A stretch of DNA of 64,000 nucleotides from Escherichia phage a48. Location of the stretch: the sequence record OQ067375.1. The stretch is one strand, 5' to 3'. The position numbers and the translations under genes are program-made. The notes under the pieces are model-generated. The model had not been told where the DNA came from. It did no database searches and worked only from the letters and a program-made list of their open reading frames with translations. Positions 2,387 to 4,135 of the stretch are shown here, one piece after another. Within the stretch, counting starts at the first letter, position 1, and every line of letters starts with the position of its first letter.

Positions 2387-2719
2387 TTATTTTACTACTT
2401 TCCAATGCTGCATGTCAAGTTTACCAACTTTTTTCATCTTCTCAATTAAGCGTTCGGCACGTTGGCGAGCTGTAACATAATGCCATTCGCCTAATTCATT
2501 TTGTTCAATTTTTCCAACGATTACTGTATTCAATTCATAAATCCAACCAGTAAAGAAATTATGAACTTGAATTGTAAAGGTGAAATCTGTTCCCATACCT
2601 TCTGTTGTTTCTACTTCAATAATATCACCTTCAACTGCCATTAAGAACCACATAGTTTCATTATATTTACCGTTGAAGCATTTAGTTTTAACTGCAGCGT
2701 TCAGATTAATCGTTTTCAT
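2387..2719 (-). CDS. hypothetical protein
   Basis: 110-aa ORF; early-type promoter 28 bp upstream. Confidence 0.45.
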   Translation of the reverse strand: MKTINLNAAVKTKCFNGKYNETMWFLMAVEGDIIEVETTEGMGTDFTFTIQVHNFFTGWIYELNTVIVGKIEQNELGEWHYVTARQRAERLIEKMKKVGKLDMQHWKVVK

Positions 2720-2746
2720 TTTATTCTCCTTTGTTTGTGTAAGATA

Positions 2747-2777
2747 ATACTATCACAAAGGAACCGTACTGTAAACA
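2747..2777 (-). promoter_or_regulatory. T-even early-type promoter (GTTTACA, 18-bp spacer, TAGTAT)
   Basis: Minus-strand -35 GTTTAC at 2776..2771 and -10 at 2752..2747; same architecture repeated 14 times in window. Confidence 0.5.
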
Positions 2778-2795
2778 ACTTTGTGCAATCTTTGG

Positions 2796-2823
2796 AAAAT
2801 AAAAAGGACTCCCGAAGGAGTCC
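2796..2823 (-). terminator. rho-independent terminator (GGACTCC-ttcg-GGAGTCC + U-run)
   Basis: 7-bp GC stem with tetraloop followed on minus strand by TTTTTATTTT; immediately after stop of 2829..3005 ORF; identical hairpin after soc. Confidence 0.6.
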
Positions 2824-2828
2824 TCAAC

Positions 2829-3005
2829 TTATGCTTTCTGCTTACCAAAACGAGAAGCATCATCTCGAAGAACCGCACGTGCTCGGCGCATGATCTTCTC
2901 AACAGTTTGATTGATACGAGAGTTCGACCCACGCTTGTAGCCAGCGCGTTTAGAATCACCAACTTTCTTTTCAACTGCTTTCTTTGCTTTAGCTTGTTTT
3001 GCCAT
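2829..3005 (-). CDS. small highly basic protein (58 aa)
   Basis: Track ORF trimmed to internal ATG at 3005..3003 (MAKQAKAKKAVEKK...); own terminator directly downstream. Confidence 0.5.
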   Translation of the reverse strand: MAKQAKAKKAVEKKVGDSKRAGYKRGSNSRINQTVEKIMRRARAVLRDDASRFGKQKA

Positions 3006-3322
3006 TATAAATTCTCTTTTAAACGAAAATGCAGGACTTATTGGCATTGCCTGCGCAAGCCCTCAAGGGGAACATAGGTTTTTGGATATTTAACGACCAG
3101 GATAACCATAAACCCGTCATCATACCTTATAGCTCTTATCTGTTGCACACCGTTAGCTTAAAGGTTCCGGGTTCGATTTCTCGAGGATAAGATATATACT
3201 GATGGATATATAGGCCTTGAGGCGTACTCCCGATTGGCCATCACCCCGGGGTAGCATGCACTTGCCGCTATAAGAATAACATTCAAGAGGTACACCGTAA
3301 AACTGCCGGGGTCTTAAAACTA

Positions 3323-3342
3323 TAATGATTCGCAAATCATTA
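3323..3342. repeat. 20-bp inverted repeat TAATGATT-cgca-AATCATTA
   Basis: Perfect 8-bp arms read directly; lies in GC-rich noncoding island downstream of rIII; could be weak rIII terminator hairpin or protein-binding palindrome. Confidence 0.4.
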
Positions 3343-3403
3343 ATCAGACAGTTCGACGGCTCCTCGATTTTAGCTCACACTAAGGCAGTGAATCTCCAAT
3401 AAA

Positions 3404-3652
3404 TTACTTCAGTGTTACCACAAAGTGACGAACTGCTTTTCGTGCAGCAGAAGCCAGAGGCTTAGCATATTTAAGTTCATCTTTTTCCTGAAGCTCAGCA
3501 GCTAATGCAGTTTGAGCAGGATTCAGATGTTTGAAATAACGCAGGATTTCAAGAGCTTCGGCTTCAACATCAATAGATGCGCCATAGTTTTCGTGACCAT
3601 TATTCCATGCGTTTCGTTGCAGTTCAAGAGCGTGTTGTAATTGTTTAATCAT
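3404..3652 (-). CDS. rIII: rIII lysis-inhibition accessory protein
   Basis: 82-aa ORF MIKQLQHALELQRNAWNNGHENYG... matching recalled T4 RIII size and position next to gene 31. Confidence 0.8.
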   Translation of the reverse strand: MIKQLQHALELQRNAWNNGHENYGASIDVEAEALEILRYFKHLNPAQTALAAELQEKDELKYAKPLASAARKAVRHFVVTLK

Positions 3653-3791
3653 TTAAAAATTCTCGTTAGAGATTAAAACTCGGTAGTCACGTTCTTCTGA
3701 ATTTCATCTTCTTTCGACAGATCTCTCAGTTGTAGACTACCACATAGAATTGTTCGGTTAACTTATTATTCCGACACCCAATTCATATTAT

Positions 3792-3799
3792 TATTTATA
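3792..3799 (-). promoter_or_regulatory. late-promoter-like TATAAATA box
   Basis: Exact TATAAATA on minus strand between gene 31 stop and rIII. Confidence 0.3.
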
Positions 3800-4135
3800 T
3801 CACTTATAAAGACACGGAATAGCTTTATAGTGACAGGTAACGAATTTTTGTTTAATTTCTTTTGGCTGCTTAAGACCCAGAGCTACAAAAGGATGCGGAA
3901 CATTTCGAATTTGACCAACTGGAAGAGAAGTCAAATCGCCAACTTCGCAGAAACCTTCAGGAACATCAGGACCGACAGAGTGAACTACACACAGTTCAGG
4001 AACTTCACCTTGAACACGTTTACCGATAATAAGTCCTGATTCTGTAACTTCTTCATCACCGGCTTGTGCAGGTTCAGAAACTAAAATAACATATTCACCG
4101 ACAGCACGAATTGGTAGCTGTTGTACTTCAGACAT
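3800..4135 (-). CDS. 31: gp31 co-chaperonin (GroES analogue)
   Basis: 111-aa [33 protein letters not shown]... matches recalled T4 gp31. Confidence 0.9.

Follow-up and report, generated by a model that had tools for sequence, protein, structure and literature searches.

The spacer between rIII and the gene for a 30.9-like small basic protein in Escherichia phage a48 (sequence record OQ067375.1), a T4-type phage of the genus Tequatrovirus, contains on the minus strand, at positions 3123-3276 of the stretch of 64,000 nt analysed here (the window), an element that is read, with some preference, as an uncatalogued structured RNA of around 150 nt, likely self-contained, and for which a partner-binding accessory RNA is the leading guess. 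A covariance model of our own (R1) matches the window with 187.6 bits (E = 2.6e-46) and finds the element as the sole copy in the 64 kb. The element appears to constitute a new RNA family that is widespread in T-even-type phages of Enterobacterales and missing from T4.

Eight helices were tested explicitly, namely P1, P1a, P2, P3, P4, P5, P6, and the kissing loop between L2 and L3, in an alignment of 26 distinct sequences generated with MAFFT from sequence only (alignment A4). Standard base pairs are found in 96.5% of 1246 cells, as against 30-43% if the 3' partners are shifted along by one to three columns. Changes on both sides occur at 27 of the 48 pairs, and none of 500 shuffles reached the observed value on any of five measures. 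RNAalifold independently yields P1, P1a, P2, P3, P4, P5, and P6. In the divergent copies, changes gather at paired positions and are compensated; Yersinia phage fHe-Yen9-01, recovered by the covariance model only (106 bits), exhibits changes that validate the two short and otherwise invariant helices P1a and P6. The parts of the element, from its 5' end on the minus strand, are the following:

3123-3276, minus strand: structured RNA element of around 150 nt, covariance-model match, with a helical body at 3126-3274
3267-3274, minus strand: 5' strand of P1, CUUAUAGC, pairing with 3126-3133 and closing the element with 8 bp
3264-3266, minus strand: 5' strand of P1a, GGC, 3 bp with GCC at 3213-3215, start of the P2 arm at the four-way junction
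3256-3263, minus strand: J1a/2, single-stranded block AAGNGCAU, invariant columns in alignments A4 and A6
3247-3255, minus strand: 5' strand of P2, GCUACCCCG, pairing with 3222-3232, with a bulged A and a bulged C
3238-3243, minus strand: kissing strand of L2, UGAUGG, 6-bp pseudoknot with L3
3222-3232, minus strand: 3' strand of P2, CGGGAGUACGC, pairing with 3247-3255
3207-3212, minus strand: 5' strand of P3, UAUAUA, 6 bp with 3193-3198
3200-3205, minus strand: kissing strand of L3, CCAUCA, pairing with L2 at 3238-3243
3186-3192, minus strand: 5' strand of P5, UCUUAUC, 7 bp with GAUAAGA at 3134-3140
3173-3184, minus strand: P4 hairpin UCGA-GAAA-UCGA, 4 bp, GNRA tetraloop at 3177-3180
3147-3172, minus strand: P6, ACCCG / CGG-U-GU with a bulged U, 5 bp around the 15-nt loop L6
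3141-3146, minus strand: J6/5, block GCAACA, invariant alignment columns
3126-3133, minus strand: 3' strand of P1, GCUAUAAG, pairing with 3267-3274

The closing helix P1 exhibits double changes at seven of its eight pairs (e.g., CAAACAGC/GCUGUUUG in PKM.Lu.22.1 and AUAAUC/GAUUGU in Cronus) and opens into a four-way junction without unpaired linkers. Arm 1 consists, in this order, of P1a, an internal loop, P2, and the 14-nt loop L2. P1a is identical in 26 sequences and compensated to GGU/ACC in fHe-Yen9-01, while the internal loop is asymmetric and places AAGNGCAU opposite CYYAWG (3216-3221), with invariant nucleotides. Concerning P2, which comprises 9 bp and an invariant bulged A, 5 to 7 of the 9 pairs covary: CCCCG/CGGG in a48 is swapped as a whole for CGGAU/AUCCG in EcS1 and for CUCUA/UAGAG in Serratia phages, and fHe-Yen9-01 possesses GCAUCAA/UUGAUGC. 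Arm 2 consists of P3 (four of six pairs covarying, 100% of cells paired) and carries the 8-nt loop L3. The kissing loop between L2 and L3 is paired in all 26 sequences (100%), with covariation at three of its six pairs and with the variants YGAUGG/CCAUCR, AAUGA/UCAUU, and UAUGG/CCAUA; since pseudoknots cannot enter a covariance model, it provides an independent confirmation of the fold. Arm 3 is formed by P5 (four of seven pairs covarying, 99.5% of cells paired) and ends in a three-way junction, which bears P4, P6, and the invariant linker GCAACA. Three of the four pairs of P4 covary, and most members possess GAAA or GUAA as its loop; L6 has the composition GAMCC, a variable hexamer, and GCUAA. 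P6 is compensated from A-U to U-A in Cronus and from G-C to A-U in fHe-Yen9-01 (CCG/CGG to CCA/UGG). A tertiary UGCA-UGCA pairing of J1a/2 with J6/5 was considered and rejected, its flanks varying without compensation and U141 fitting better into P6. In EcS1, where the element is situated at 1756-1918 of the locus, the GGCC after the L2 kissing strand is lost and a 7-nt insert with UAUGGCC is gained in loop L6, which, in this one sequence, may be a relocated tertiary contact.

The RNA strand is the minus strand, i.e., the sense strand of rIII and 30.9. It is fixed by the 21 G·U pairs as against 0 A·C pairs within the helices, by the P4 loop, which is GNRA on the minus strand only, and by the preference of RNAalifold for the sense over the antisense orientation (-39.6 vs. 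-32.2).

Concerning conservation, the element is 93.5% identical to the window in KP01, 94.2% in Merlin, 92.8% in Q7622, 82.0% in PS2, and 79.1% in Cronus, whereas in the same five phages, which represent five genera, the adjacent rIII coding sequence reaches only 71-76% nucleotide identity and the adjoining 100 nt of spacer 52-68%, which is near the level of unrelated sequences. The most diverged copies, those of EcS1 and fHe-Yen9-01, are around 70% identical and retain the whole fold. Invariant loops together with compensated stems across several lineages indicate that purifying selection acts on the RNA, and that the similarity is not a matter of recent exchange alone. A protein-coding gene was rejected: no open frame passes across the element, as in all 23 homologues each of the six frames is interrupted by one or more stops, so that the element is non-coding, and its members differ by insertions and deletions of 1, 3, and 7 nt.

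No catalogued family accounts for the element. The 4227 models of Rfam 15, which include the riboswitch, ribozyme, group I and group II intron, RNase P, 6S, and Y RNA classes, gave no match inside 3048-3403 at E <= 10 (1101 nt searched). A search of 186 nt returned nothing relevant, just fragments of 18-25 nt of small nucleolar RNA C-boxes (AUGAUGA-like) in the flank; the other permissive match nearby is the terminator after 30.9, which resembles terminators of small RNAs. At the gathering score, 0 families were found across the whole 64-kb window. Group I introns were rejected, as there is no match to Intron_gpI, the element is intergenic and around 150 nt long, and the flanks of element-free phages do not form an interrupted gene. 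RNase P RNA, recognised by a P4 helix and by the conserved regions CR-I to CR-V in collinear order, was rejected as well: the words in common with E. coli rnpB (GTGCAACAGA, GATGGCC, CAAGGCC, and GAACCCGG) do not follow each other in the same order, and local alignment gives a score of 20, which lies inside the range of shuffles (mean 16.5, maximum 24). A resemblance to the SAM-I riboswitch (CUUAUC...AGAUAAG and CCCGGAACC) was dropped, there being no match to a SAM model of Rfam. Concerning the stable RNAs species 1 and 2 of T4 (rnaC and rnaD), the element resembles them in being a phage-encoded, structured orphan of 120-150 nt that is dispensable in some relatives. It differs from them in its location (their tRNA cluster vs. 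the spacer between rIII and 30.9), in its absence from T4, and in sharing neither sequence nor structure with them: R1 with filters off gives no match over T4 positions 70908-71171, and its best match in a 6-kb region of T4 (10 bits) lies within coding sequence. Full-text literature searches, whose coverage is incomplete, returned no description of the element, and a term search within a 2023 survey of structured RNAs of viruses and phages (PMC10690425) did not find it.

Within phages, part of the spacer is found by BLAST in 993 of 50,697 records, its full 356 bp in 179, and the core element in 407. Among 48 rIII loci from IMG/VR, 20 contain the element, each time just downstream of rIII. T4, RB6, and many other Tequatroviruses possess a spacer of around 245 bp that matches both ends of the gap and is devoid of the middle part of around 150 bp; this middle part is the only part of the gap recognisable in other genera, where the flanking spacer is unalignable. 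It is 90-95% identical in phages of Jiaodavirus, Karamvirus, Kanagawavirus, and Marfavirus, 83.4% identical over a longer stretch in the Moonvirus phage Merlin, and 74-84% identical in Roskildevirus, in Muldoonvirus, and in one Karamvirus record that was entered as an Aeromonas phage. The element is an accessory cassette, and four lineages contain sister phages of which some possess it and others are precisely without it. In Tequatrovirus, a48 possesses it and T4, RB6, and wV7 do not; in Dhakavirus, CLBP2 possesses it and WG01 does not; in Tegunavirus, it is found in fHe-Yen9-01, and phiR1-RT and TG1 are without it; and in Grimontviridae, it is found in PKM.Lu.22.1 and absent from PKM.Hi.22.6, the flanks of which are 98% identical.

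In the 76-kb genome of PKM.Lu.22.1, which belongs to an unrelated phage family, the element follows the stop codon of an SSB-like gene, the product of which ends in DFDDDCPF, and precedes the terminator of that gene, and a gene for an extracytoplasmic function (ECF) sigma factor follows next after element and terminator; the insertion replaced seven nucleotides and duplicated none. Since this context is unrelated to that in a48, the neighbouring genes are not conserved, whereas the sense orientation within an operon is. Outside phages, BLAST gave no match in 5,426 complete E. coli genomes or 72,556 plasmids, and two pattern scans, each covering one genome per species for 185,579 species of bacteria and archaea, returned nothing. 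A scan of metagenomes yielded 53 loci, of which 40 are chance matches in GC-rich coding sequence and 13 belong to ordinary T4-like contigs, thus adding no new diversity.

The insertion site, bordered by CTCTTGAATGT and ATGATGACG (junctions 3128/3129 to 3281/3282), is a cassette hotspot between conserved anchors. In T4 it contains 2 nt, in a48 the 150-nt element, and in both wV7 and WG01 an unrelated sequence of 46-52 nt; in STML-198 it is empty. Mobile cassettes of T4-type phages consisting of a promoter and a stem-loop (PeSL) were reportedly described by Arbiol, Comeau and Krisch in 2010. The element is similar to them in being a short non-coding module in a plastic intergenic region, exchanged by recombination through conserved flanks, whereas it differs in that PeSL cassettes comprise an early promoter and a simple stem-loop and the element is a pseudoknotted multi-helix RNA of 150 nt without a promoter-like site.

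The genomic setting of the element, all local genes being situated on the minus strand, comprises the following features:

3800-4135, minus strand: gp31, upstream of rIII
3404-3652, minus strand: rIII, 82 amino acids, upstream neighbour, an open reading frame (ORF) whose homologues carry the annotation rIII in over 400 records
3372-3397, minus strand: Motif A, GGAGAUUCACUGCCUUAGUGUGAGCU, directly following the stop codon of rIII, in the flanking spacer outside the element
3323-3342, minus strand: AU-rich 8-bp hairpin UAAUGAUU-UGCG-AAUCAUUA, followed by UAGUUUU, in the flanking spacer outside the element
2829-3005, minus strand: 30.9-like small basic protein, 58 amino acids (MAKQAKAKK...), downstream neighbour, PHROG 1427 (function unknown)
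2804-2825, minus strand: intrinsic terminator after 30.9, annotated as a terminator in fPS-65

The element thus lies in sense orientation inside the transcription unit of gene 31, rIII (a phage gene of lysis timing), and 30.9. Downstream of the element, no strong terminator is reached before that at 2804-2825, past 30.9. Over 2700-3800, a48 shares 99.7% identity with Yersinia phage fPS-65 and with the Escherichia phages U115 and MLP2. Between rIII and 30.9, a consensus scan placed neither promoter-like nor terminator-like sites. In Merlin and Cronus, the element begins 2-8 nt past the rIII stop codon and therefore has no room for a promoter of its own; in Tequatrovirus and Jiaodavirus, the spacing is around 110-125 nt. 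A stimulator of programmed read-through or frameshifting in rIII was considered in view of the start 2-8 nt past the stop codon in Merlin, Cronus, and PKM.Lu.22.1, and was rejected on account of the longer spacing in Tequatrovirus and Jiaodavirus and of the closed frames. Mechanical ORF calling extends 30.9 to 72 amino acids (2829-3047, minus strand) from an upstream ATG at 3047, whereas the homologues (30.9 of T4 and g206c of fPS-65) are annotated with 58 amino acids and a start ATG at 3005, so that the true non-coding gap is around 398 nt (3006-3403), not 356. Several public records place spurious ORFs of a "hypothetical protein" over the element, one of them named "1,4-alpha-glucan branching enzyme".

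Concerning the flanking spacer, the hairpin at 3323-3342 is kept in element-free phages with the short form of the spacer and in phi92. It could be a weak terminator of rIII or a processing site; the terminator scan misses it because it contains no G-C pairs. A motif of 27 nt, AGGTGATTCGCTACCTTAAGTGCGGCT, is identical in the Gaprivervirus VR26, where it directly follows the rIII stop codon, and in both PKM phages of Grimontviridae, where it is found beside the insertion point regardless of the element; the window holds a diverged version, namely Motif A. The motif can form a small hairpin, CRCU-NCCUU-AGUG. The spacer between the element and 30.9 (3060-3070, 3095-3118, and 3031-3054, minus strand) exhibits an architecture common to all genera, with the element present or not, which comprises a small hairpin ACCCYUNRGGG, the sequence CUUG(C/A)G, a long hairpin, and a U-rich tract just before the ribosome-binding site of 30.9. 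Hairpin and U-rich tract may constitute an attenuator. Another hairpin, GUUGCC-GNRA-GGCAAG, is situated immediately 5' of the element in loci of the Kanagawavirus type and 3' of it in Marfa; this difference in position points to a shuffling of small RNA hairpin modules inside the spacer between rIII and 30.9. Furthermore, the Justusliebigvirus phi92 (NC_023693), which is not a relative of T4, contains at 2872-3297, in its tRNA gene cluster, a 3' fragment of rIII and the short form of the spacer, around 99% identical to 3048-3128 plus 3282-3530 of the window; this copy looks like a very recent transfer between families, and the same match is found in phiWec187 and A6-6.

The region had attracted attention in a sequence-only reading, made by a model from the letters of the DNA, as a GC-rich, palindrome-dense, non-coding island at 3048-3403, and this observation is confirmed as real and beyond chance. 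With a G+C fraction of 0.444 as against 0.355 in the whole 64-kb window, the gap lies at the 98.4th percentile of windows of 356 nt. The motifs named in that reading are all present at or near the positions given (CCCCGGGG at 3244, GCATGC at 3254, GGCC at 3213 and 3236, and, on the plus strand, CTCGAG at 3180 and GGTTCGATT at 3170), as is the perfect 8-bp inverted repeat (3323-3330/3335-3342, 4-nt loop). The density of palindromes is borne out for those of six bases (11 vs. 5.5 +/- 2.3 in shuffles, 2% of which reach 11), whereas palindromes of eight bases are not enriched. The statement that no credible ORF exists agrees with the finding of short, non-conserved ORFs within the gap, the longest of which comprises 60 amino acids from a TTG start (3153-3335, minus strand) and is not conserved either.

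The palindromes are mostly accounted for by the helices of the RNA. CTCGAG reflects the P4 hairpin, the plus-strand complement of which consists of this hexamer and part of GGTTCGATT; the two copies of GGCC belong to P1a and to the kissing strand of L2; and GCATGC straddles the boundary between J1a/2 and P2. CCCCGGGG is specific to a48, its relatives reading CCCCGAGG, so that this palindrome is an accident of one substitution in L2. Since the minus strand is the RNA strand, the T-loop-like GGTTCGATT is merely the antisense of two helices (the 3' strand of P4 and the 5' strand of P6), and the corresponding RNA positions vary freely with covariation (UCGA, UCGG, UCAG, UCUG). The structured non-coding RNA that had been offered as one explanation is strongly supported for the central 150 nt or so on the minus strand, the rest of the gap being flanking spacer. 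A regulatory region, offered there as well, is conceivable. Concerning the searches that had been proposed, those with covariance models of tRNA, group I introns, and Rfam families gave no match to a known family, whereas our own model recovers the element; the comparison with the regions downstream of rIII in other T-even phages displays the core as a clean insertion or deletion relative to T4 and RB6. The gap is clearly not ordinary diverged intergenic sequence.

In the reading preferred here, the element would be made as part of the rIII messenger RNA (mRNA) and would most likely function through its own fold as a self-contained RNA, be it as part of the mRNA or once processing has taken place, with the invariant junction nucleotides possibly forming a binding pocket or an active site. 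A self-contained module is suggested because the element apparently works in different flanks, has no fixed neighbouring gene, and is accompanied by no matched expression platform. As a leading guess, it might serve as a decoy, sponge, or antidote for a protein of host or phage or for a small molecule, and such a binder would have an accessory function in host interaction or counter-defence. A binder is put first because the pattern fits that of accessory and counter-defence genes: the element is dispensable in T4, polymorphic among sister phages, shared by unrelated phages of the same hosts, and, where it is found, strongly constrained. The ranking of a specific binder before a small ribozyme, and of the latter before a riboswitch-like attenuator, is a guess from sequence comparison.

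Several points weigh against this reading. The fold of the single sequence is no more stable than that of shuffles (minus strand, z = -0.8; plus strand, z = -0.6), an uninformative result. As the sequences are related, the shuffle control overstates significance, and the control with slid partners as well as the independent lineages are the stronger arguments. The diversity is modest, with around eight clearly distinct lineages, all in phages of Enterobacterales, and part of the high identity could derive from recent exchange and not from selection. Transcription and any processing are inferred only from position and strand. The choice among binder, ribozyme, and switch is a guess drawn from arguments of context, with partner, ligand, and cleavage site all only hypothetical.

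Among the alternatives to a binder, a small self-cleaving or RNA-processing ribozyme, which would cut the mRNA of 31, rIII, and 30.9 and thereby uncouple stability or translation of the flanking genes, ranks highest, although it is unlikely. It would explain the perfect, linker-free four-way junction, the conserved internal loop in one arm, and the tertiary loop-loop contacts between arms, all of which are found in several small ribozymes such as the natural hairpin ribozyme and the four-way twister-sister, as well as the embedding of the element in an mRNA and its modular, phage-restricted occurrence without a fixed gene association, the ribozymes named being likewise modular, found in mobile or viral settings and tied to no particular gene. 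This comparison is one of architecture alone, and the element differs from the small ribozymes in several respects: no match to hammerhead, twister, twister-sister, pistol, hatchet, hairpin, HDV, or glmS ribozymes was found at E <= 10 on 186 nt; the element is single-copy and always in sense orientation; its length of around 150 nt exceeds that of most self-cleaving classes; and neither a recognisable cleavage-site motif nor a candidate site that could be named is present.

A riboswitch-like cis-regulator, i.e., a ligand-sensing aptamer that would modulate read-through at the hairpin and U-tract found shortly before the ribosome-binding site of 30.9 or, in PKM.Lu.22.1, at the terminator before the sigma-factor gene, is rather improbable on the sequence comparisons. 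The anatomy is aptamer-like: similar to the lysine and purine riboswitches, the element possesses a freely covarying closing helix P1, a multi-way junction with invariant nucleotides, and two neighbouring arms, one of them with an internal loop, joined by a loop-loop contact of around 6 bp. The lysine riboswitch, with 150-180 nt, is also of similar size, whereas the purine riboswitch constitutes a parallel on a smaller scale. Furthermore, the element always runs in the sense orientation with a gene on either side, a terminator-like hairpin follows it in both contexts, and in PKM.Lu.22.1 the 3' strand of P5/P1 (AGAGGCUG) is, as read by eye, partly complementary to the 5' arm of the terminator (CAGCCCCUCU). 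However, the downstream hairpins are unchanged in the element-free T4 and PKM.Hi.22.6, so that no expression platform is coupled to the element, its distance to the downstream gene varies from around 70 to 190 nt, and the downstream genes are unrelated (30.9 vs. ECF sigma factor). Neither the Lysine and Purine models nor any other riboswitch model of Rfam was matched, and the element combines a four-way with a three-way junction and has no five-way junction.

Selfish or neutral DNA, i.e., a spacer cassette shuffled by recombination or resembling a miniature inverted-repeat transposable element (MITE), the copies of which would be similar through recent horizontal exchange and have no RNA function, is very improbable. 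The mobile-element remnant suggested in the sequence-only reading stands insofar as a cassette, present or absent between sisters in Tequatrovirus, Dhakavirus, Tegunavirus, and Grimontviridae, is exchanged among phages; the 8-bp terminal inverted repeats of the element, the other inserts at the same site, and the shuffling of small hairpin modules in the spacer would also fit. The remainder of that suggestion fails, and a MITE or other transposable element was rejected, as the terminal repeats covary as an RNA helix, no target-site duplication is found at either of the independent insertions, and there is one copy per 64-kb window or locus. Selfish DNA in general is largely refuted by the compensatory substitutions in eight helices including a pseudoknot, by the 21 G·U as against 0 A·C pairs, and by the diverged copies of EcS1 and fHe-Yen9-01, which hold the fold at around 70% identity.

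A decayed tRNA or remnant of a tRNA-like gene, to which the T-loop-like GGTTCGATT at 3170 of the plus strand, the layout with four arms at a junction, and the neighbouring spacer kept by phi92 in its tRNA cluster might point, is refuted for practical purposes, since ARAGORN found no tRNA or tmRNA genes in the whole 64-kb window, Rfam gave no match to tRNA or tmRNA at E <= 10, the 9-mer lies on the non-functional strand opposite the G·U-bearing one with its RNA complement covarying in P4 and P6, the phi92 copy is without the element, and the element is unrelated to rnaC and rnaD of T4.

Concerning the wider meaning, T4-type phages are heavily studied, yet the element is found in no RNA-family catalogue searched, and the records examined leave it unannotated or cover it with spurious ORFs; in annotation, ORFs should not be called across it. 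It is tentatively proposed, at a little less than even confidence, that the element represents a new functional RNA class of T-even-type phages (a ribozyme, a ligand sensor, or an RNA-only module of counter-defence or host manipulation) that spreads in the form of a cassette of 150 nt among Enterobacterales phages unrelated to one another; its absence from the reference phage T4 would then be the reason why it has been overlooked. An RNA that combines a four-way junction, a pseudoknot with covariation, and numerous unpaired positions without variation bears the signature of specific binding or catalysis. The element surpasses rIII in conservation, yet it is dispensable in T4, and its exchange between families that share hosts resembles that of accessory and anti-defence genes. 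If it does serve in anti-defence or host interaction, it would be a rare example of an RNA-only function of this kind; if it is a ribozyme or a sensor, it would constitute a new class.

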